Virus record (IMG/VR): IMGVR_UViG_3300021256_000055
Coordinates: 71,124-135,123 of that record
Length of the DNA stretch: 64,000 nucleotides
Strand: one strand, 5' to 3'
DNA from: a virus
Taxonomy: Duplodnaviria; Heunggongvirae; Uroviricota; Caudoviricetes
The first letter of the stretch is position 1; each line of letters opens with the position of its first letter. The notes below the pieces were generated by a model that was not told the origin of the DNA, searched no databases, and saw nothing but the letters and a program-made list of their open reading frames with translations. The position numbers and the translations under genes were made by a program. Shown one piece after another: positions 7,125 through 18,575 of this stretch.

Positions 7125-7805
7125 TTACCAATCACAAGTGTAATCTTTTTTACCAAAATTACCAACATTATTAGCAAGTCTAGTATGTCCGCGAACAAAA
7201 TCCAAGTCAAATGTTAAATAAATCTTATTATTATATGAATAACCAAAATTATTTATAAAATCATTTTTAGACTCTAAACTTATACTACCAACTTTATACC
7301 TAATTTTACCAGTTTTTTCATCTCTATATGGCTTATTCATAGGTACTTTAACATCTATCCATATAATTGGTAAATCTGGTACTAACTCACCTGGTGCATT
7401 ATCTGATGAAAAACCAATAACAAGATCACCTACAGTGCTATTGAATTTATTATAAGCTGTTATACCTAATATATTTGCGGGTAAAATTTTCTGTACCCAT
7501 TCTTCTTTTTTTGAATTATAAAGTTCTTCAGTGTGTTTTACAATAATATTTTGATATCCTAAATCAAGAGCAATATAATTCAAAGCACTTAATACTACAT
7601 GCTCTGTAAGCGGTCCCCATACGTCAACTCTAAAATCTGTAGGATTTATCTGTTCAATATTATTATGATAATATTCTACTTTATCTAAAATCTCTTGCTT
7701 TGCATCACTAGAAAAATAGCTAGGTCCTTTATTTGCAAACGCTGCTAAAACCTCATTTATTTCTTCACTACAAATATCAAAATTTTCTTTAGTAATATCA
7801 CTCAT
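7125..7805 (-). CDS. Putative PD-(D/E)XK-fold nuclease
   Basis: GDLVIG...IWIDVK pattern; start at ATG 7805 overlapping upstream TGA. Confidence 0.45.
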   Translation of the reverse strand: MSDITKENFDICSEEINEVLAAFANKGPSYFSSDAKQEILDKVEYYHNNIEQINPTDFRVDVWGPLTEHVVLSALNYIALDLGYQNIIVKHTEELYNSKKEEWVQKILPANILGITAYNKFNSTVGDLVIGFSSDNAPGELVPDLPIIWIDVKVPMNKPYRDEKTGKIRYKVGSISLESKNDFINNFGYSYNNKIYLTFDLDFVRGHTRLANNVGNFGKKDYTCDW

Positions 7806-9396
7806 AAATATATACCTTATAGCCACAGTCGTACATAATATTGTAGCCTTCTTTTAATAAATTTAGTCTTGTTGATAGATCACTGTTAAAATCAAAATTA
7901 TCTTTTTGTTCTACCCAAGACCTTTTATTTAATGACCATGATTCAAGTTTACCGTCTCCTTTCCAGTAGTAAACTGATGGTACAGTATCTCTTAGATATT
8001 CCATAGCATTTGCTATATCATCTGGCCATCTCATATCATGATAATAAATCATACTTTCATCTGCATGCATTTTAGTCATCCAAATAACATATGCATGTAA
8101 GATATTTTCTATATAAGTTCCAACTTTAGAACATATTCTATTTAATTCCCAATTATATTCCTTTAGATATCTTGGTATTGAATATCCAGCCACTGAAACC
8201 AATTCGCCATTATAGTACATACCTAGTTTTAAGGATGCAGAGCCTTTACCCCATAAGTGATTATTTTCACAGAAGTCATTAAAAGTATCTAAGTCAATTT
8301 CTCTTATATCACAATTATAAGCAGAAATAGCTCTATCATAAATACCTAAAATATTTTTAATTTTAAATCTAACTATTTCTGGTTTAGTATACCAATAATC
8401 TTCCATTAAACCAATATAGGAAATTCCAAATTTCTCGCAATCCCTAGATTTTATTTGTAAATCATAATTACCAATATTAGAATGAGTTGCTGTTGAAATT
8501 AAATCAATTCCTACATTTTTTTCTGGAATATAAATATCAAAAGTAAAACCAGAAAAAGCATCATTATAGTCTGTTTTCGTTTCAAATCCTAATTTAGAAA
8601 TAAAAGCATTTATAGCACTTATCTGTCCTCGTGGTTTTACTGCTTTCATACAATTTGGACATCTATAAATTCTGGATTCATAAGTTACAGGAACTTCATA
8701 TCCACAAACGGCACATCTAAAATTATACATACCATTCTTAAAAATAAGATTTACATTTGGAAAATACTGTATAGCATTTAAGTAATCATTAAATCTTTTT
8801 TCTTTTTGTGGGGGAATATTATTTATTGAAGTTATTGTACTGTCATTATACTGGTCTTTTAATGAGTCAATCTGACTCTCCAATCTAATTCGCGTATAAG
8901 TTTCATAAGACCCATATTCTTCTTCTGCAGTCTGCTCAATATGCTTTTGTCTTATTGCATAAGCTTTTTCAACTGAGCCATATCTTTCCATCATACTAGT
9001 AAGGGATTTTAATCTAAAATCTGGTGCAAAAGCAGCATTTTCTACGCCTATAGTTTCCATTAAATGCTTTTTCTGGTTTTCATACCAAACTTTACCATAA
9101 TTTTCACCATACTTGGCTGCTTTTGTTGCTCTAATTTTTTCTTGTACTTCTGGACGGGCTTGTGGACTCGTAATCCCCGGCCCATATTTTGCTTCACAAG
9201 ACCTAGCCAACTTATGTGCTCGACAATAGATAAACTCTTTAGAAGAAGATAAATCAAAGTAAGACCTAACATGTAGTTTACCACATTTAGGACAATGACA
9301 CAAAATCTTAAATTTTCTCTTATCACTTTTAGGTTTAGGTAAATCTAAAAATTGACCATAGTTTTCAACTTCAGCATTATATGCTGGAAGATTCAT
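7798..9396 (-). CDS. Free-standing homing-endonuclease-like protein (Zn fingers, KYG repeats, Vsr/EDxHD-like nuclease, C-terminal GNAT-like region)
   Basis: CPKC, CAVC..CPNC, KYG/RYG repeats, FDIYIPEKNVGID..THS, FCENNHLWG...YNGELVSV...WELNR; GGAGG RBS before ATG 9396. Confidence 0.7.
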   Translation of the reverse strand: MNLPAYNAEVENYGQFLDLPKPKSDKRKFKILCHCPKCGKLHVRSYFDLSSSKEFIYCRAHKLARSCEAKYGPGITSPQARPEVQEKIRATKAAKYGENYGKVWYENQKKHLMETIGVENAAFAPDFRLKSLTSMMERYGSVEKAYAIRQKHIEQTAEEEYGSYETYTRIRLESQIDSLKDQYNDSTITSINNIPPQKEKRFNDYLNAIQYFPNVNLIFKNGMYNFRCAVCGYEVPVTYESRIYRCPNCMKAVKPRGQISAINAFISKLGFETKTDYNDAFSGFTFDIYIPEKNVGIDLISTATHSNIGNYDLQIKSRDCEKFGISYIGLMEDYWYTKPEIVRFKIKNILGIYDRAISAYNCDIREIDLDTFNDFCENNHLWGKGSASLKLGMYYNGELVSVAGYSIPRYLKEYNWELNRICSKVGTYIENILHAYVIWMTKMHADESMIYYHDMRWPDDIANAMEYLRDTVPSVYYWKGDGKLESWSLNKRSWVEQKDNFDFNSDLSTRLNLLKEGYNIMYDCGYKVYIYE

Positions 9397-9427
9397 AATA
9401 GCCTCCATAATACTAAATTAGGAAGCT

Positions 9428-10009
9428 TTATTTATTCCCAATCTGCTGCTTTAGTTTAGCGATAGTTTCTCTTATTGGCCGAATATCTTTATATTCAATA
9501 TTTTCAATTTTCTTTTCTAATTTATTGATTTTAGACTCTAAATCTTCTTTTGTATCAGAAATACTATCCTCTAATTGGCTAACGTCTTCATCAGTACGCT
9601 CACTTAATTTTTCTATTTCTCTAGCCACTAATTCAGTCATATTATCTTTAAGAACTTCCAATAAATGGGTAGTAACATCCCACCTAAAAGCATTTAAATC
9701 TAATTTAACGCCATCTGTAGCTTTAGCATTATTCTCAATTTGATTCATAAGATCAGCTACTTTTTCTTTAAGTATTTCTTTTAATGATTTTTCTGCAGAT
9801 TCAATTTCTTCTTCAAGCTCTACTTTATTTTTATGAATTTTTTCATATTGTACTTTATCGGAATCAATACTTTTTTGCTTATTTTCTTCAACTTCTTTTT
9901 CTAATGTCTCAAATCTTTGAAGTAATTTTCCACTTTTAACAAAAACCAAAATAATAGCTGCTAATGTACCAGCTACAGAACCTATTGCTGCCCAAGTTTC
10001 CCAATTCAT
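9428..10009 (-). CDS. N-terminal TM plus coiled-coil protein (possible holin/lysis accessory)
   Basis: One N-terminal hydrophobic helix then heptad-rich charged sequence; GGAG RBS. Confidence 0.55.
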   Translation of the reverse strand: MNWETWAAIGSVAGTLAAIILVFVKSGKLLQRFETLEKEVEENKQKSIDSDKVQYEKIHKNKVELEEEIESAEKSLKEILKEKVADLMNQIENNAKATDGVKLDLNAFRWDVTTHLLEVLKDNMTELVAREIEKLSERTDEDVSQLEDSISDTKEDLESKINKLEKKIENIEYKDIRPIRETIAKLKQQIGNK

Positions 10010-10480: not shown

Positions 10481-10485
10481 AAATA

Positions 10486-10506
10486 AGCCACACAAATTGT
10501 GTGGCT
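10486..10506. terminator. Bidirectional intrinsic terminator
   Basis: agccacaca-aat-tgtgtggct between convergent genes, A/T tracts on both sides. Confidence 0.8.
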
Positions 10507-10514
10507 TTAATTTT

Positions 10515-11813
10515 TTAAAATCCTTTATTTGTACCAATATATTCTGGTGTCCATTCTTTTACATTTTTAAGTAAATATTTTTCATCATACTCTAATGGAA
10601 GTCCCTTTAATTTATTATACTCATTCCAATAAACTTTTGACCATTTACACTGCATTTTTGTTATTTCACATATATGCGTTGTTCTAACAAAATCGCCATA
10701 TTCCGCAAAACATCCACCAATACAATATGCGCAGGCTGAAGAAAACTCACAAGTTTTACATCTTTCCTCTTTAGAACAAGTATTATAGCAGCCCCCATGT
10801 CGTACTTTAATAAATGCCTCTTTATTATAAAGACCTCGGTCTACATCGCCAACTACCATTAAGTCACGAGTTTTATTAGTTTGTGTATGTGGTGCCCATC
10901 TAAAACATGGATAAATTTTTCCATTTATTCCTAAACATGGCATAGAACCAGACCCACATTTTGAAAGTCCATCTTCAGGTATCCTATGGTCAGCAAAAAA
11001 TGTTTTATCTAGCATTGACCAGAAAAGTTCATCATTATGCTCTAAAACATATTGAACACATAATTTTAATTGCTCATCTAGTAAAATATAATCTTCATTT
11101 GAAAGATGCATATCTTCCATAATAAAATTTTGATTAATATATCTAATTCCTAATGTTTCATGCATAAACTCTAAAGATTTTCTTAAAAATGGAATTGAGT
11201 CTTTTGCACAAGTCGCTTTAGTGATTAAGCACTCAGTAGGAAATGTTTCTTGATACCACTTCCAATTTTTTAAGATTGTATCCATTGTACCAATTTCTTC
11301 ACCATTAGGTCCACGTTGCTTAAAAATTCTATTTTTATCATGAATCTCAGGACATCCATCAATAGATACTCCTAGAGACAGATTATCTTTCCATCGTTCA
11401 CAAAACTGTTTAACATCTTCATTGCCGAATAATGTTCCATTAGATGATATATTACATCTCCAATTTTTTCGCCAACGTTTACAATATTCTGTATTTGATT
11501 TATTTACTTTATAAAGAAAATATTCAATAATAGATTCTACAGTAGATACATTCATTAAAGAATCTCCACCGATAAAATCTAAAATAATACCTTGACTTAT
11601 AATATTATCAAGATTGTCATCATTAGTATCCTTAGTAAATCCTAAGGGATCTTCATCATCAGTAATTAAATCTATAAATTTATAAGCTGTATCTAAGCTT
11701 AAATCTTTTTTTCTTTTATTTATTTCATAACAATATTTACAAGCTAAATTACAATCTTCTGTTGTATTAAAAGTTATAGTTAAGCCTGTAAACTCTGTTC
11801 CTTTTGTTATCAC
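10515..11813 (-). CDS. Radical SAM/SPASM peptide maturase, CXXX-repeat target family (TIGR04115-like)
   Basis: CNLACKYC (CxxxCxxC), DFIGGD, SSNG, SIDG..HDKNR, SPASM CGSG...YPC...CKTC..SACAYCIGGC...HIC; AGGAG RBS and GTG start. Confidence 0.93.
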   Translation of the reverse strand: MITKGTEFTGLTITFNTTEDCNLACKYCYEINKRKKDLSLDTAYKFIDLITDDEDPLGFTKDTNDDNLDNIISQGIILDFIGGDSLMNVSTVESIIEYFLYKVNKSNTEYCKRWRKNWRCNISSNGTLFGNEDVKQFCERWKDNLSLGVSIDGCPEIHDKNRIFKQRGPNGEEIGTMDTILKNWKWYQETFPTECLITKATCAKDSIPFLRKSLEFMHETLGIRYINQNFIMEDMHLSNEDYILLDEQLKLCVQYVLEHNDELFWSMLDKTFFADHRIPEDGLSKCGSGSMPCLGINGKIYPCFRWAPHTQTNKTRDLMVVGDVDRGLYNKEAFIKVRHGGCYNTCSKEERCKTCEFSSACAYCIGGCFAEYGDFVRTTHICEITKMQCKWSKVYWNEYNKLKGLPLEYDEKYLLKNVKEWTPEYIGTNKGF

Positions 11814-11822
11814 ACAATACTC

Positions 11823-12179
11823 CTATGGATGAAAATATAATGTTTTGTTAAAAATAACAGCTTGTGATATATCTAATTTATGTCCAAGTTTTCTTTCTAT
11901 TTCTTCTATTTCACTAGGAGATAGATGACTAAGGATATTATTAAATATTTCCTTATTTAGAAACTCAAACTCACATTTTTCAGCTAATAATTTGTTAAAG
12001 TAATTATAAATTTCATTTTTCTTAAAAAAAGAAAAGTTTATCTTACTCGCATCCATTGCGCTTTTATTACAATGATTCATGTTAAAAAATGCGTCATACT
12101 TATCTGAAAAATTATTTAATTTAAGAACAGGTATAAGAGTAGCCTTACAATCAGAACATACTATATTATCAAATGTCAT
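11823..12179 (-). CDS. CXXX-modification-system accessory protein B (118 aa, N-terminal CxxC)
   Basis: Real start ATG 12179 immediately after the target gene stop (the ORF-track extension to 12374 is an overlap artefact); resembles 13663-13977. Confidence 0.7.
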   Translation of the reverse strand: MTFDNIVCSDCKATLIPVLKLNNFSDKYDAFFNMNHCNKSAMDASKINFSFFKKNEIYNYFNKLLAEKCEFEFLNKEIFNNILSHLSPSEIEEIERKLGHKLDISQAVIFNKTLYFHP

Positions 12180-12180
12180 T

Positions 12181-13650
12181 TTATTTAAGCTTCCATTTAC
12201 TAAAAATTGCTTTAGATGAGCCATTAGCACAGCTATTACTACATGTATCCTGACAGGTATCTTTACATCCGTTAGCACAGTCATTCTTACAATTATTTCT
12301 ACAAGAGCCCGTACAAGAATCTCCACATCCTGATTTACAACCGTCTCCACAGCCACCTGCACAAGTACTGCCACATCCTACAGCACAGGCTTTAGAACAG
12401 CCACCATCACATTTAGCTCCACAACCAATTTTACAGCTTTCTGAACATCCTCCTGCACAAGCTTTTCCACAATCTTTAGCACAGTCTGTTCTACATCCTC
12501 CAGCGCAGGCACCACCACAGCCTTTTTTACAATCCGCACTACAACCTCCGGCACAAGCGCTACCACAGCCTACTTTACATGCTTCTGAACATCCACCCGC
12601 ACAACCGCCACCACAGCCTACTTCGCAACTTGCAAAGCATTTATTACTACAGCCGCTATAGCATCCGCCGCCACATCCAGTATAACAACCACCGCTACAA
12701 GTATTTCCACAGGATTCTTTTCCACAATTACTTCCAGAACAACCAGCATTACAACTACTTGCACAATCAGATGCACCCCATCCTGAACAGCACTTTGAGC
12801 TAAATACACAGTCGCCTTCTTGTCCAGAAGAACATGAGCTACCCGCGCATTTACCATCACAGTCTGATGAACAACCAACATTAGAACAAGCAGCGCCACA
12901 AGAACCAGTACATTTGCTACCACAAGCGCCTTTACACTGTGCGCCACAAGAGCCATGTTTACATGCGGCTGTACATCCATCTGCACAGCCATTTCCACAA
13001 TCTTTCTGGCAGGCTTTAGAACATCCACCGTCGCATTTAGCACCACAGCCTACTTTACAGGCCTCTGAGCATCCACCGGCGCAGCCGTTACCGCATCCTA
13101 CTTCACATGCTTTAGAACAACCACCATCGCATTTACTTCCACAACCTTTAGCACAATCTGCTCTACAGCCGCCGTCACATGAAGTTCCACAGCCTTTAGC
13201 GCAATCAGTGCTACATCCCCCCTTACAAGCAGCGCCACAGGATGATTTACAGCTACCTGAACATCCACTATCACAGTTGGTATTACCACAATTACCATTA
13301 CAGGTATTTCCACAATTTCCAGCACATCCCATACAGTGGTTTGTACAATTGGCTGCGCACCCGATTTTATCGTTTATATCTGAATCAACTTGATTTAGGT
13401 AATCTAAAAACCCACTATAAATTTGAGACCCCGCAAATACTGCATCTGGGTCTGAGTTCTTACCAAAATTATAAGGGTCAGTAGTATATCTTAAGCCATC
13501 AGCGGCTTCATCAAGAATATCTTTAACGTCAGTATCTGTATTAGACCCCGTAGAAAAAGTAGGAATATCTCCTGTATTATAAGCTGCTTTTTTAGCATTT
13601 ATAGACTTGATTATGGAATTAAGTTGGTTAGCAGTAATTTCAGAGGCCAT
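12181..13650 (-). CDS. Cys-rich CXXX-repeat protein, putative radical-SAM modification target
   Basis: 97-aa Cys-free N-terminus, then about 92 Cys mostly spaced CXXX; adjacent to rSAM. Confidence 0.92.
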   Translation of the reverse strand: MASEITANQLNSIIKSINAKKAAYNTGDIPTFSTGSNTDTDVKDILDEAADGLRYTTDPYNFGKNSDPDAVFAGSQIYSGFLDYLNQVDSDINDKIGCAANCTNHCMGCAGNCGNTCNGNCGNTNCDSGCSGSCKSSCGAACKGGCSTDCAKGCGTSCDGGCRADCAKGCGSKCDGGCSKACEVGCGNGCAGGCSEACKVGCGAKCDGGCSKACQKDCGNGCADGCTAACKHGSCGAQCKGACGSKCTGSCGAACSNVGCSSDCDGKCAGSSCSSGQEGDCVFSSKCCSGWGASDCASSCNAGCSGSNCGKESCGNTCSGGCYTGCGGGCYSGCSNKCFASCEVGCGGGCAGGCSEACKVGCGSACAGGCSADCKKGCGGACAGGCRTDCAKDCGKACAGGCSESCKIGCGAKCDGGCSKACAVGCGSTCAGGCGDGCKSGCGDSCTGSCRNNCKNDCANGCKDTCQDTCSNSCANGSSKAIFSKWKLK

Positions 13651-13662
13651 TTTAATTAAGTC

Positions 13663-13977
13663 CTATTCAGTTGGATGCCGCCAAATTTTACCGTCTAAGA
13701 TACGAATATCATCAGAAGGACTAATATGGTGGTTCTCAACTATTTTGTTAAAAGTTAAGTAATCAAGAACTTTGTTATTTGCTAGCTGATTATATACTGC
13801 ATGAAAATATTCCGAAACTTGTTCAGAATTTTTAAATGCTTTTGCATTCCCAAATAAGTTCTGAAGTTCTTCATTCAATATTGAATACTTTGTTTCAATA
13901 AAGCTAACATCTTTAATTTCGTCTTCAGTAAGCTCCGAAATTAGCTCAAGTTCTTTTCCACACTGATCACATGTCAT
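13663..13977 (-). CDS. CXXX-modification-system accessory protein A (104 aa, TIGR04116-like)
   Basis: AGGAGG RBS; CDQC then ISELTEDEIKD helix pattern recalled from TIGR04116-type proteins; gene context. Confidence 0.65.
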   Translation of the reverse strand: MTCDQCGKELELISELTEDEIKDVSFIETKYSILNEELQNLFGNAKAFKNSEQVSEYFHAVYNQLANNKVLDYLTFNKIVENHHISPSDDIRILDGKIWRHPTE

Positions 13978-14049: not shown

Positions 14050-17000
14050 CTATGTTGTTATCCAGATAGCGCCATTAGTGGTTGGTGTTGTAGATGGGTC
14101 AATTTCTACTACTAAAGGCGCTTTAGGCCCTTGTGGTCCTTGTGGTCCCCGGTCTCCTTTATCCCCTTTTGCACCTTTCAAATAATCAAAAGTAAATGTT
14201 GTATTCGACCCTGATGTACTTGCTGTAACAGATGGAGTACCAACAGAGTTTATATTTTTACCAGCAGCAACACTAATAGATGGTACGATATATATACCAC
14301 GAGGTGTTGGTCGTGTATTAGCACTTGGTTCCACACTCTGGTCATTTATTGTATACTTTGATGACTTAACAGACCAGCTACAGATATATGTAGATTCTAA
14401 TAAATATTTTCCACCACCACGTAAATAAAATACTGGTACGCTACTATTTGTAAGCTGGGTATAACTAACTGGAGACTGGTTTGTACATCCAGTAACTGCT
14501 TGTGTCCAACTAAAATTATCAATAAACTTTATGCAAGTAGCAGGGGTAGATCCCCAACCACTTCTTTGCTCTTGAACCTCAAATTCAACTGAAAAACCTT
14601 GGCCATGAGTAGCCCAAGCCGGTTTTGTACCAGAATTAAGTTGGACAGTACATCTTAAATTTTGAACGCCATCACTACTTAGAGCAGTACCAACAACTGG
14701 GAACCAAGTATTACTATTTAGAGAAGATACATCTACCCAAGTTTTTGATATCCAAGGATCATTCATAGAATATGGCCCTGTCCAAGATCCACTATTATAG
14801 TGACATACCCATGTAGATGCAACATTTAATGCAGCAGTCATAGCGGATAGGTATAATGTACCAAATTTATAATTATCACCACCTATGCCACTACGATGTG
14901 GTATATAAAACCAAGTATACCAACAATTTCCAACAGGACCATTTGATAAGTTTACTGATCCATGTCGAGCTGGCGCATTAGTTTTACTAGTATTTGCTAT
15001 ACTTGCTAAGAAATCAGCAAGCTTAATTGCACTGTCACTGATGGTTACACCAAAACCATAATCATCTACAGCAGTTGATATTGCGGAATTTCTGTTAGAA
15101 ACTTCTGTATTTATATTGTCAGCAATTATACTATTTATTTCCTGATAATTACCAGCAGCGTTTCTAGTTTCAAGTTTTTCTATTTTAGTACTTGCAATCC
15201 AGCTTTCTGGGACACGCTGAATAGAATCTTTGATTTCATCAACACTAACAACGGTTCCTTGGTAGGAACCACTATAGCCTAACATAGTTCTTGAATATTC
15301 ACCAGGGTTACCATGTATATAATCTAATGTTATACCTGCATCATATCCGCTATTGGATAAGTAAACTTTAATACCTAGCCAGGTAACGCCATTATATACA
15401 AATGTAACTGGCTCTATACTAACTCCATGGGCTTCAACTTTATTAAGATTTATATAAGTTTTCCAACTATGAGAATATCCATGACCCGCAATAAATTCAA
15501 CTTGACCCACATTATGACCAGAAGACCTTACAAATGTTACTTTTCCACTTATATCCCAGTTATATGGACTATTAACTGCAGTAGAGCCTACCTCTAAGAC
15601 TTGCCCCAAAAATAAAACATAGGAAACACTTTCTGTTAACCGAGGCACAGTTAGAGTCTTAAAATATGAGTTTGCGGAAATATTATTACTAATAGAAGCA
15701 GACTTGCCTGAGATGCTATTTGTTGCAGAGATATCCTTAGTAGAAACTTTATTAGTTGCTGAAATACTGTCCGATGCAGAGAGAGTTTTAGTAGAAATAT
15801 CACCACTAACCGTTTCTTTGTTTACTGTTACTGAATCACCAATTAAAGAGCCATGAATAGGATTTGTTGCGGATAAATTATTAAATACGCCATTCTGTTT
15901 TAAGTCATCTAAGTCTGATTCTATACGCGCTTCAAATGCATCGAGTTCTTTTTCAGCACCATCTATAAAGCTATCTACTCTACTAGAAAGAGTAGCTTCT
16001 GTTTGAGAAACTCTATTTATTATAGATGTATCATTCTGTTTTCTTGCAGCTTCTTCTTTTTTAAGCTCATTTATAAATTGTGTGTAAAAAGTATTAACTA
16101 GATTTTGGGCTTCTGACGAAGTGATACCTGTAACAGTAACAACTTTACCTTCATCATTAAATCCCCAGTCCATCTGAGGATTTTCATCGCCATTAAGCGC
16201 ATAATTGAAAAGGCTATAGTTAATACTAATAGCAGGCTCTGGCTCATTTAGCTGCTTTTTAATTGTTACTCGAATATCATCGTCATATGATACAGCATAT
16301 GTATCATCAACCATATTATTATATTTTTCTACAGCATTAGTCATAACTGATGACATACGCTGCTTAAGTTTATCTATACTATCAGCTTTATTTTCATAAA
16401 GGTCTGTTTCAGGCGTAGATTTTTGTTGTAAAATTATGTCGTCTATAGTATCATTAGAAATATTTACTAATGACTGAATAGCTGAATCATTCGTTAAATT
16501 TTTTAGTGTTGTATTAAGATCCCCAACAAGCTTTGCCATTTCAGCCGTAACTTTTGGAGCATATACATTATCAAAGTAAGCATTTAAGCTACCATATTCA
16601 GAAAGAATTGAGGTATCATTTTCTATGTCTTCTTCCGCAACTCTATAGTATTTATCGCGTAAAGAATTAAGAACAATCTTATATACTTGAGTATCTTTAA
16701 TAGTATCAGGTACAATATCACTATGAATTGCATTATATTCTTCATTAAACTTTAAGTTAACATTATTAGCAATTTTAGTTTTACTGTCTTCAAGTATATT
16801 AATGCTATAATCAATGCTATTTCCTAATTTTCGTCCTCGTTCAAGACAATAAAGAGTATTATATAATTCTTCATAGTTAATAGAAGCAACAGCTGAACCA
16901 AATAGGTCTGTATAGTCTAACGCAACTTTATAGTCAGATGTACCCCAGTTAAAGGCAGGTTTATTGACATCAGACCAGCGTCTCGCATCATATGCTTTAA

Positions 17001-17082
17001 CTATAATAGGAGCGCCTGCTTCAGCGGCTTTCATAATATTTATTTGTTCTGGTATAGTTTTTTTAGATTTATCGTCAGCCAT
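14050..17082 (-). CDS. Tail fibre protein (coiled coil, knob-like domain, C-terminal collagen-like repeat)
   Basis: WYTWFYIPHRSG..GDNYKFGTL knob-type motif, GAKGDKGDRGPQGPQGP, AGGAG RBS before ATG 17082. Confidence 0.7.
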   Translation of the reverse strand: MADDKSKKTIPEQINIMKAAEAGAPIIVKAYDARRWSDVNKPAFNWGTSDYKVALDYTDLFGSAVASINYEELYNTLYCLERGRKLGNSIDYSINILEDSKTKIANNVNLKFNEEYNAIHSDIVPDTIKDTQVYKIVLNSLRDKYYRVAEEDIENDTSILSEYGSLNAYFDNVYAPKVTAEMAKLVGDLNTTLKNLTNDSAIQSLVNISNDTIDDIILQQKSTPETDLYENKADSIDKLKQRMSSVMTNAVEKYNNMVDDTYAVSYDDDIRVTIKKQLNEPEPAISINYSLFNYALNGDENPQMDWGFNDEGKVVTVTGITSSEAQNLVNTFYTQFINELKKEEAARKQNDTSIINRVSQTEATLSSRVDSFIDGAEKELDAFEARIESDLDDLKQNGVFNNLSATNPIHGSLIGDSVTVNKETVSGDISTKTLSASDSISATNKVSTKDISATNSISGKSASISNNISANSYFKTLTVPRLTESVSYVLFLGQVLEVGSTAVNSPYNWDISGKVTFVRSSGHNVGQVEFIAGHGYSHSWKTYINLNKVEAHGVSIEPVTFVYNGVTWLGIKVYLSNSGYDAGITLDYIHGNPGEYSRTMLGYSGSYQGTVVSVDEIKDSIQRVPESWIASTKIEKLETRNAAGNYQEINSIIADNINTEVSNRNSAISTAVDDYGFGVTISDSAIKLADFLASIANTSKTNAPARHGSVNLSNGPVGNCWYTWFYIPHRSGIGGDNYKFGTLYLSAMTAALNVASTWVCHYNSGSWTGPYSMNDPWISKTWVDVSSLNSNTWFPVVGTALSSDGVQNLRCTVQLNSGTKPAWATHGQGFSVEFEVQEQRSGWGSTPATCIKFIDNFSWTQAVTGCTNQSPVSYTQLTNSSVPVFYLRGGGKYLLESTYICSWSVKSSKYTINDQSVEPSANTRPTPRGIYIVPSISVAAGKNINSVGTPSVTASTSGSNTTFTFDYLKGAKGDKGDRGPQGPQGPKAPLVVEIDPSTTPTTNGAIWITT

Positions 17083-17090
17083 AAACTCTC

Positions 17091-18575
17091 CTATTCGGTT
17101 CTTTCCCAACAATATTTAACTGTATAAGGTGGCATAATATTGAATGCATCACCAGTAGCTTTACTATTACCGCCACCAGTAACTGTAATCTTTGCTGAGG
17201 TGGTTGTAGTATCATTTTTAGCGCTAGCATTATATAAAAGTGGATACGCATTTGATGAGCCACTGATACTATCTGTTTTTGTTATAGTTACTGTATGACT
17301 ATGCGCAGGTAAGTTTTTTGTTGCCAATGCTGCAGTTTTACTACCACCAGTAGTATCTACTGAGTCTGAATCACCAGCAGCATAAATAAAAGTATCTGTT
17401 ATACGTTTCCATTTTCCACCAAATAGCGTATCAGGTGAAGTATTCTTACTAGACCAATAGAGAGACCCTACTGGGTAAGATATATCTAGAACCATTCGTT
17501 TAATAGATTCTGTTAATTCTAGTTTAGAAGCGCTATCTAAATTTTCTGCGTTTTCAGATGCTTCTTTTAGGAATATCGGCTTTGCATTAGCTATTTTTTC
17601 ATCTATATCATTAAGAATAATCTCATGCAAAGAATTATCATAATCTTTAGCAGTTTTAAGTATACTTTCCTTATTAACAGTATCTCTAAACTCTGCTGTG
17701 GAAATAGCATCTGCAATAGCATTATTAAGTTCAGACCTAGTTACTTCAACTTCAGAATATGTAATATTTCCTTGTGAATCAGTCTTAACGCCATACTCTG
17801 GTGACGCGCCTACAGTAGCTTTTGCCAAATCGTAGGATACAGATAATACATTTTCACGTCCAAGATTTTTCCAGAATCGTAAAGTTATACCTTTTTCTTC
17901 AAGTTCTATTATTGTACCATCTTCTGTAGTTGGATATATTTCCATAACCTGAGACGCAAGCTTATTTACAATAGATTTCAAGTCATCTATAGATGGCGCA
18001 TTATTTTCATATAGTACTTTATCAGAATCTGGTAAAGTGCTTAATAATTCTTTTGTAGATTGTGAAATAACTTTATTAGCAGCGAGTATTATACTATCAC
18101 GTAGAGTTGTTTTAGCAATATTTTGAATTTCAGCAATATAATCATTTATAGTATCTGCATCACCACCGACTGCATGTATAAGCTCTTTAAAAAAATCGGT
18201 TTTAATTAAGCTCGCTTTATCTAATGCTGCGCAATCTACATCTATTTTTGTAGAAATATCAGATTTAACATTTGTTTCTAATAAATTAATCTGTTGTTCA
18301 GCATAGTCGATTGGACTTCCTAAGTTTTTACCACGCTCTAAATAATTTAATTGGTTTACTAAATCTGTAAAATTAAGAGTTGTATTCTCTGGGTTAGATA
18401 AAAGAGAAGTGTAATCCGTAACAATCTTATAATCAGAAATACCCCAGTTAAATACTGGATTTTCTGTACGCGCCCAAACTTGAGAATTTTCGGATTTAGT
18501 ATAAACTAAGCCGCCAGCATTTGCAACCTGCATTACGGCAATTTTTTGAGCAAGGTCTTTCTTAGATGCTGCCAT
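17091..18575 (-). CDS. Baseplate/tail protein with gp10-like C-terminal domain
   Basis: YPVGSLYWS..SPDTLFGGKW...GGSKT..L..KNLPAHSH...NIMPPY..YCWER; N-terminal about 330 aa paralogous to 14050-17082. Confidence 0.8.
   Translation of the reverse strand: MAASKKDLAQKIAVMQVANAGGLVYTKSENSQVWARTENPVFNWGISDYKIVTDYTSLLSNPENTTLNFTDLVNQLNYLERGKNLGSPIDYAEQQINLLETNVKSDISTKIDVDCAALDKASLIKTDFFKELIHAVGGDADTINDYIAEIQNIAKTTLRDSIILAANKVISQSTKELLSTLPDSDKVLYENNAPSIDDLKSIVNKLASQVMEIYPTTEDGTIIELEEKGITLRFWKNLGRENVLSVSYDLAKATVGASPEYGVKTDSQGNITYSEVEVTRSELNNAIADAISTAEFRDTVNKESILKTAKDYDNSLHEIILNDIDEKIANAKPIFLKEASENAENLDSASKLELTESIKRMVLDISYPVGSLYWSSKNTSPDTLFGGKWKRITDTFIYAAGDSDSVDTTGGSKTAALATKNLPAHSHTVTITKTDSISGSSNAYPLLYNASAKNDTTTTSAKITVTGGGNSKATGDAFNIMPPYTVKYCWERTE

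Follow-up and report, generated by a model that had tools for sequence, protein, structure and literature searches.

The 489-residue cysteine-repeat protein P0001, the sole CXXX protein encoded by a 258-kb phage, is, judged by the sequences of the gene and its neighbours, the target of a divergent CXXX-repeat radical SAM/SPASM cassette of the TIGR04115/TIGR04114/PF27846 type. This cassette is located at the end of the tail-fibre operon of the phage. The chances are about even that the two cysteine arms of the protein run antiparallel as a stapled hairpin rod, with a 16-residue super-repeat as the lengthening module. The system is of a known kind, often met in phage tail modules and catalogued by NCBIfam and Pfam, and the window, i.e. 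the whole stretch of 64,000 nucleotides that was analyzed (bases 71124-135123 of a 258,524-bp IMG/VR virus record), holds a divergent member of it. Our analysis adds a rule of balanced arms, a conserved aromatic tip and a paired extension of the arms, none of which we found described.

A radical SAM cassette at the end of the tail-fibre operon

Features of the cassette, with window coordinates, strand and basis:
13663..13977, minus strand: accessory A, 104 aa, with an N-terminal CxxC, 12 nt upstream of the P0001 gene (orthologues, alignment)
12181..13650, stop codon included, minus strand: P0001 gene, 489-aa Cys-repeat protein (ORF translation)
11823..12179, minus strand: accessory B, 118 aa, starting directly after the P0001 stop codon (L090 orthologue in the same position)
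10515..11813, minus strand: radical SAM/SPASM maturase, 432 aa (HMM search, identity to related enzymes)
10485..10507, no strand assigned: two-way terminator-like hairpin with a 10-bp stem, 5 GC pairs and T-runs on both strands, directly after the maturase gene

The start of the maturase gene lies 368 nt downstream of the P0001 stop codon, with one small gene intervening. HMM searches gave TIGR04115 as by far the best family of this enzyme (202.4 bits, E 1.4e-59, under the cut-off of 350), with a match covering profile positions 3-354 of 359, and the PapB family NF047865 as the second (109 bits, E 3e-31). The cysteines of the radical SAM CX3CX2C motif (C21, C25 and C28) and those of the SPASM cluster (C286, C293, C303, C346, C352, C355, C361, C364, C368 and C382) are invariant between the maturase and the L008 enzyme, and the protein is 47-58% identical to enzymes adjoining Cys-repeat genes on five other phage contigs. 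The earlier note, made from the letters and open reading frames of the window, had labelled the cysteine-rich protein a target, and this downstream enzyme with TIGR04115 as its best family bears the label out.

The genes of the cassette are tightly spaced in the order accessory A, target, accessory B, maturase and terminator, and the gene order was also found in L008/L009, L014 and L090. Orthologues of accessory A are present in L089 (55% identity) and L014. Both accessory proteins align with small proteins from related cassettes; accessory A has no HMM match of its own and shows a weak similarity to accessory B (E 0.023). The hairpin behind the maturase gene is likely to be the end of the operon. 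The same strand carries, farther upstream, a protein of 1020 aa whose end is collagen-like and one of 494 aa (gene 17091..18575) that matches tail and tail-fibre PHROGs. The sole PHROG match of P0001 itself was phrog_6085, of unknown function (E 1e-6). From the position of its gene, P0001 may belong to the virion.

The cassette resembles the catalogued CXXX-repeat system in its long arrays with Cys at every fourth position, in the adjacent radical SAM/SPASM enzyme with TIGR04115 as best family, in its small helical partner protein and in the mostly viral nature of its ESM Atlas neighbours. These feature neighbours belong to clusters of PF27846 ('tSAM_targ_Cxxx_rpt'), mostly from Uroviricota, with PF27846 in 42-53% of their members and a score of 0.89-0.90. 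It differs by scores under the curated NCBIfam cut-offs for target, maturase and partner protein alike (13.6 vs 20 bits, 202 vs 350 bits and no match, respectively), and by the two accessory genes that flank the target. The 13.6 bits are those of the best of six sub-threshold TIGR04114 stretches on the P0001 array. TIGR04116 had no match anywhere in the phage at E values up to 10; against the small partners of related cassettes this profile gave 34 bits for L011 and 21 bits for L012, with a cut-off of 50. A search of P0001 against the Pfam copy used returned no match, and neither did a megablast of the cassette against GenBank phages.

Dedicated maturase, small partner proteins and a leader-like N-domain with a helix preceding the core all fit RiPP logic, and the protein could be read as a RiPP-like product outside the virion, released at lysis or kept inside the cell as a toxin, decoy or anti-defence factor, with the N-domain as a cleaved leader. 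We hold this reading to be very improbable. The cassette sits within the tail-fibre operon and has no protease or exporter, since none of its neighbouring ORFs matched a peptidase or transporter family, and in relatives the N-domain and array are fused C-terminally to proteins of 500-2000 aa with adhesin-type domains.

Two arms of equal length around a central insert

Features of P0001, with window coordinates, strand and basis:
13360..13650, minus strand: N-terminal domain, aa 1-97, Cys-free and leader-like, ending in ...GSQIYSGFLDYLNQVDSDINDKIG-C (alignment with about 30 homologues)
12832..13359, minus strand: arm 1, aa 98-273, 44 Cys, 175 residues from first to last Cys (Cys positions)
12766..12831, minus strand: central non-repeat insert SSGQEGDCVFSSKCCSGWGASD, aa 274-295 (22 aa), the proposed hairpin tip (sequence)
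12229..12765, minus strand: arm 2, aa 296-474, 45 Cys, 178 residues from first to last Cys (Cys positions)
12184..12228, minus strand: C-terminal tail ANGSSKAIFSKWKLK beyond the last Cys (comparison with relatives)

P0001 contains 92 Cys between aa 98 (13357-13359) and aa 474 (12229-12231); the hand count of about 92 over 12229-13359 in the earlier note was exact. The 91 Cys-to-Cys spacings are of 4 residues in 80 cases, 5 in six, 8 in two and 3, 6 and 1 in one case each. The array is composed of 24% Cys and 23% Gly, the remainder being mostly Ser, Ala, Lys, Asp and Asn. The insert SSGQEGDCVFSSKCCSGWGASD holds the single CC of the protein, one Phe and one Trp, and divides the cysteines into 44 before, 3 inside and 45 after it, at the place where the earlier note had put the split, except for a shift of one base. 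The irregular units of 5 residues show no exact mirror symmetry about the insert. Open reading frames in other frames across the array (12618..13046, 12914..13393 and others) were rejected as genes and regarded as repeat artefacts, because the conserved flanks in L090 exist for the Cys frame alone.

An exhaustive HMMER search with P0001 recovered 399 proteins at E values up to 1e-3. Arrays occur in three settings: after an N-domain of about 100 aa, as in P0001; at the C-terminus of proteins of 500-2000 aa, with the N-domain of about 100 aa directly preceding the array; and flanked by the N-domain on one side and a large C-terminal domain on the other. Members of the N-domain family begin with a helix and have another whose end reads ...D-[DL]-x-x-x-[GL]-x-C; in P0001, AF2 placed helices at aa 7-25 and aa 79-93, with a pLDDT of just 60-69. 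Many relatives share a conserved C-terminal cap, C-x-N-S-[AS]-R-[IY]-G. Among full-length homologues, L090 is the nearest; it is encoded on a 1.9-kb metagenome contig with a P0001-like gene order. This protein of 57 Cys has an N-domain 54% identical to that of P0001 and shares the insert and the C-terminal tail as well, its cap reading CANKSSNSKSTWKLS.

The position of the break in the array was analyzed in the relatives. A break was defined as a spacing of at least 7, and 30 arrays of at least 20 Cys had exactly one. The arm asymmetry was at most 0.15 in 19 of these 30, vs 4.5 expected for a uniform break position (binomial p 2e-9), and permutation of the second arms among the proteins gave 9.65 balanced arrays expected (P 5e-5), both statistics treating as independent the representatives of 50%-identity clusters, which are not independent. 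The arm pairs span from 10/13 to 43/47 Cys. The composition of the break follows its position: central breaks are hydrophobic or Trp-bearing and off-centre ones polar, the hydrophobicity declining with rising asymmetry (rho -0.56, p 0.001), and all eight Trp-bearing breaks are central. Typical central breaks are CSGGWDWGC, CSDSWAWGC, CKGGWYVGMC, CNGWLVPTGC and CWFLFIAPC, of which CKGGWYVGMC is followed by CC, as in P0001. In compact arrays, Trp clusters at relative position 0.4-0.6 (25/67).

Comparison with L090 showed the same balance at another length. Its arms measure 104 and 102 residues vs 175 and 178 in P0001; both arms differ by about 72 residues and equality is kept. The insert is conserved in L090 as SGGQAGSCLGSSKCCGNWGASG, where CSGGQAGSCLGSSKCCGNWGASGC corresponds to CSSGQEGDCVFSSKCCSGWGASDC of P0001, and L089 carries a 53-nt insertion at the point of the P0001 insert. 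Recent duplication of a whole arm was rejected as the source of the balance, since 16 of the 20 balanced proteins examined had arms without direct similarity to each other (z < 2). In P0001 the arms do resemble each other (z 6.1), and these two may share a history.

The central breaks in 19 of 30 arrays, the conserved insert with balanced arms in L090 and the Trp-bearing or hydrophobic nature of the central breaks favour a hairpin. The earlier note had proposed a hairpin-folded fibre with the insert at its tip as one of two folds, and it is this fold that gains comparative support; its suggestion that the tip binds a receptor is a guess. Forty-six compact arrays, about half of those in the family, have neither a break nor a central signature, which means either that the hairpin holds for a subclass only or that unbroken arrays pair between chains; such arrays may be linear or pair in that way.

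The arrays might also be linear shafts, in which a local thioether ring would staple each CXXX unit, the insert would be a hinge or kink and the arms would never touch. PapB and ranthipeptide maturases process tandem short Cys-containing repeats, and the PapB family ranks second, at 109 bits, among the matches of the P0001 maturase. PapB, however, joins Cys to Asp within one strand, in CX3D motifs, whereas the +4 position, that of the acceptor, is always Cys in the P0001 array. The unbroken half of the family's arrays speaks for a shaft, as do the spacer-like arrays between the N-domain and large C-terminal domains in P0012, P0015 and P0016 and the N-terminal array of L026, ahead of a C-terminal region of 587 aa. 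A shaft gives, on the other hand, no reason for the central break in 19/30 arrays, and leaves unexplained the equal arms in both L090 (104/102) and P0001 (175/178) and the confinement of Trp to central breaks. We consider a linear shaft rather unlikely.

A 16-residue super-repeat restricted to the P0001 lineage

Features of the super-repeat, with window coordinates, strand and basis:
12964..13203, minus strand: five 16-aa units in arm 1, aa 150-229 (unit lag, layout, pattern; TRF 48-nt periods)
12244..12627, minus strand: eight 16-aa units in arm 2, aa 342-469, of which six are strict (aa 342-437) (layout, pattern)

The CXXX units of P0001 are grouped in fours. Identity at non-Cys positions between unit i and unit i+4 was 0.34, vs 0.167 +/- 0.026 in shuffled arrays (z 6.4), and none of 5000 unit shuffles reached the observed value. 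Identity was 0.33 at lag 8 and about 0.09, under the shuffle mean, at lags 1 and 3. The grouping in fours had been read from the sequence in the earlier note and is confirmed, though the super-repeat spans about 55% of the array and not the whole of it. Thirteen units lie in register, five at aa 150-229 and eight at aa 342-469, with the consensus C-[KA]-[KV]-G-C-G-x-x-C-[AD]-G-G-C-[SR]-x-[AD], and 11 of the 13 match the strict pattern C..[GD]CG..C.[GD]GC.... The units of the two arms share one residue register (aa 214 to 342 = 8 x 16). The blocks are found in the middle of the arms, 56-135 residues before the tip and 57-168 after it, and it is to these mid-arm blocks that the extra arm length of P0001 relative to L090 corresponds.

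The peptide CGAKCDGGCSKAC is present at aa 202-214 and at aa 410-422, encoded by stretches in which 5 of 39 nt differ, all synonymously, as the earlier note had reported. Over all pairs of the 13 units, pS was 0.68, near saturation, and pN 0.32. This supports old copies maintained by selection on the protein, and recent slippage was rejected as the origin of the repeat on the pS value; the earlier note had drawn the same distinction from the single peptide.

A strong 16-residue period was observed in none of 14 viral homologues (none above a lag-4 z of 2.4), nor in L090 (z 0.6). Among 150 database relatives, a strong lag-4 signal (z of at least 4.4) was seen in six, with a different unit, and none held more than two copies of the strict 16-aa unit, vs 11 in P0001. 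The arrays of the homologues are not multiples of four units (e.g. 57, 44, 33, 72 and 80 Cys). As far as the compared sequences reach, the super-repeat is lineage-specific and does not represent a fold period of the family.

This result bears on the other fold of the earlier note, a solenoid with 16 residues per turn, in which the four CXXX units would form the sides, the cysteines would be packed or bridged inside, as in the disulfide-braced beta-helices of insect antifreeze proteins, and the insert would separate two blocks. A turn of 16 residues does not characterize the fold of the family, given that the phase is missing in 14 of 14 viral homologues and in L090, as in nearly all the relatives sharing N-domain, insert and cap, and that array sizes are not multiples of four; the expectation of the earlier note that repeat number would change by four CXXX units at a time failed on the same sizes, and homologues lacking a 16-aa phase are the first of the two observations that it had named as refuting its view. 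P0001 itself does have a strong period of 16 maintained by selection, Gly positions (4, 6, 11 and 12) that differ between the four units and arms in one residue register (8 x 16). The phase nevertheless covers only about 55% of the array, a solenoid leaves the equal arms unexplained, and none was produced by structure prediction. With the single sequence, AF2 gave no usable model of P0001 (pLDDT 41.6); with a 24-sequence alignment, pLDDT was 40.9 for the whole chain and 30-45 across most of the array, and the ESM Atlas model had a pLDDT of 0.46. Pairing arm 1 with arm 2 and the tail in a complex prediction gave a score of 0.00, to which the tool attaches no verdict and which counts neither for nor against a contact between the arms. 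We regard a solenoid as improbable.

Recurring groups of four Cys, in an array where Cys makes up 24% and is interspersed with Gly, Ser and Ala, also recall a metal or iron-sulfur scaffold, in which the four thiolates of each 16-aa unit would bind a chain of ions or clusters and the radical SAM enzyme would have another role or none. The strict CXXXC spacing is unusual for a cluster or metallothionein motif, however, and in numerous phages the gene comes together with a maturase from families that modify peptides. We hold such a scaffold to be very improbable.

A proposed hairpin rod and its closest precedents

In the hairpin-rod reading, the best supported of those considered, the Cys-free domain of about 97 aa would probably be the handle by which the maturase and the accessory proteins recognize P0001. 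Arm 1 and arm 2 would run antiparallel and pair as one long rod, held by covalent staples that the maturase would install; by analogy with its nearest characterized relatives, these may be thioethers, which, unlike disulfides, would work in the reducing cytoplasm and lend a phage protein the bracing that secreted proteins gain from disulfides. At the other end from the insert, the N-domain and the C-terminal cap would meet at the base of the rod, and the insert would be its exposed far end. The 16-aa super-repeat would be a module that lengthened both arms in step in the P0001 lineage and was later kept by selection. Contact of the far end with a receptor is conceivable within this scheme. Taken together, the observations of the earlier note are confirmed and its interpretation is partly supported.

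We infer covalent bracing from the kinship of the maturase with thioether-forming radical SAM/SPASM enzymes and from the precedent of the sactipeptide hairpins (PMC8172795). In sactipeptides, radical SAM/SPASM enzymes introduce nested thioethers from Cys, and this ladder of bridges locks the chain into a hairpin with its two halves antiparallel (PMC8172795). P0001 has in common with sactipeptides such as thurincin H, subtilosin A and ruminococcin C a radical SAM/SPASM enzyme and a leader-like N-terminal part. These are, however, secreted peptides of 30-60 residues with 2-4 bridges, Cys in the donor half only, and a protease and exporter, whereas the P0001 array has 377 residues, Cys in both arms, neither protease nor exporter and putative bridges. 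The donors of thurincin H, Cys4, 7, 10 and 13, are not in CXXX spacing either (PMC8172795).

The NCBIfam and Pfam entries for the CXXX-repeat family are bioinformatic only. Our literature searches turned up neither experiments nor structures for the CXXX-repeat radical SAM system, and nowhere did we see balanced arms, a conserved aromatic tip or a C-terminal cap described for the family. The present comparison supplies a testable family architecture: two arms matched in length, together with a recognition domain, a tip bearing aromatic residues and a cap at the C-terminus. A subclass of the CXXX-repeat proteins might even represent a new kind of fibre, a single-chain antiparallel hairpin rod with dozens of enzyme-installed thioether rungs, matched arms lengthened in step by added repeat units and a conserved aromatic tip in contact with the host surface. 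We see this as possible, if on the unlikely side; such a fibre would be a giant virion-borne analogue of the sactipeptide hairpins. If the arms are truly stapled together, phages would use RiPP-type chemistry to make a covalently braced element in the reducing cytoplasm, and the balanced-arm rule would guide experimenters toward the cross-link sites. P0001 is a good test case, being very regular and the sole target in its genome, with a much shorter relative, L090, that shares its tip.

With the N-domain alone, neither a word-indexed homologue search nor a metagenome scan returned anything. A two-sequence alignment of the N-domain recovered L090 from the metagenome scan and nothing from the viral scan. 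A scan of viral contigs for the maturase gave 80 loci, most of which have a CXXX-rich ORF beside the enzyme. As a lead toward pairing between chains, in some phages (L048-L062) two short CXXX proteins of matched size, e.g. with 17/15, 19/17 and 16/15 Cys, are encoded side by side.

Other layouts of Cys-repeat proteins in other loci

Cys repeats are arranged in several other ways outside the locus of P0001, the CXXX-repeat target protein. At the loci of viral contigs L048-L062, two separate short CXXX proteins are encoded by adjoining genes (about 7820-8700 per locus), and the Cys counts of the paired proteins go together (17 + 15, 16 + 15 and 19 + 17). Such pairs would fit two matched arms delivered as two chains, which would then pair.

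The 159-kb phage L010 encodes a Cys-repeat protein made mainly of 5-residue units (L010:3763-4988; spacing 5 x35, spacing 4 x9), followed by a separate 72-aa ORF with 4-residue units. Two paralogous proteins adjoin a distant radical SAM relative at L071:1514-2733, and their repeat, CxCxCxxx (CSCDCNYACTCNCNY...), differs from CXXX. At L026:1704-4154, an 817-aa protein carries an N-terminal CXXX array followed by a 587-aa C-terminal region, which holds a duplicated Gly-rich segment (...GGGGGGWYGG...SGYVYT...YYLTDA...); this order indicates that the array can stand before a large distal domain.

An insertion at the proposed hairpin tip and a C-terminal cap

L089, an ENA metagenome scaffold of 1445 nt, is closely related to L090, the nearest full-length homologue of P0001: across 798 nt, L089 and L090 are 92% identical in nucleotides. 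L089 contains a net 53-nt insertion of 11% GC (L089:1100-1168), placed between CCG and WGAS, exactly at the proposed hairpin tip, the central non-repeat insert between the two arms. The insertion shifts the frame and leaves arm 2 out of frame; an A-run (AAAAAAT) lies immediately 5' of arm 2, where a -1 slip would bring the frame back. The gene could be split or broken, the insertion could be an assembly error, or programmed frameshifting could be involved.

After the last Cys, many members of the CXXX-repeat family share a conserved cap, C-x-N-S-[AS]-R-[IY]-G, of which no earlier description was found in the literature. It reads CANKSSNSKSTWKLS in L090, and in the window:
12184-12228, (-) strand, C-terminal cap/tail of P0001, CANGSSKAIFSKWKLK

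Genes flanking the cassette

Past the cassette, a coiled-coil protein is followed by an HNH / homing-endonuclease-like protein, and a large protein is encoded immediately upstream:
9428..10009, coiled-coil protein, hydrophobic segment at its N-terminus
7798-9408, (-) strand, HNH / homing-endonuclease-like protein, 536 aa (phrog_3339, E 2e-46)
14050-17112, (-) strand, 1020-aa protein

The only PHROG match of the 1020-aa protein is one of unknown function. Its C-terminal end is a short collagen-like G-X-Y run (GAKGDKGDRGPQGPQGP), and it is probably a fibre protein.
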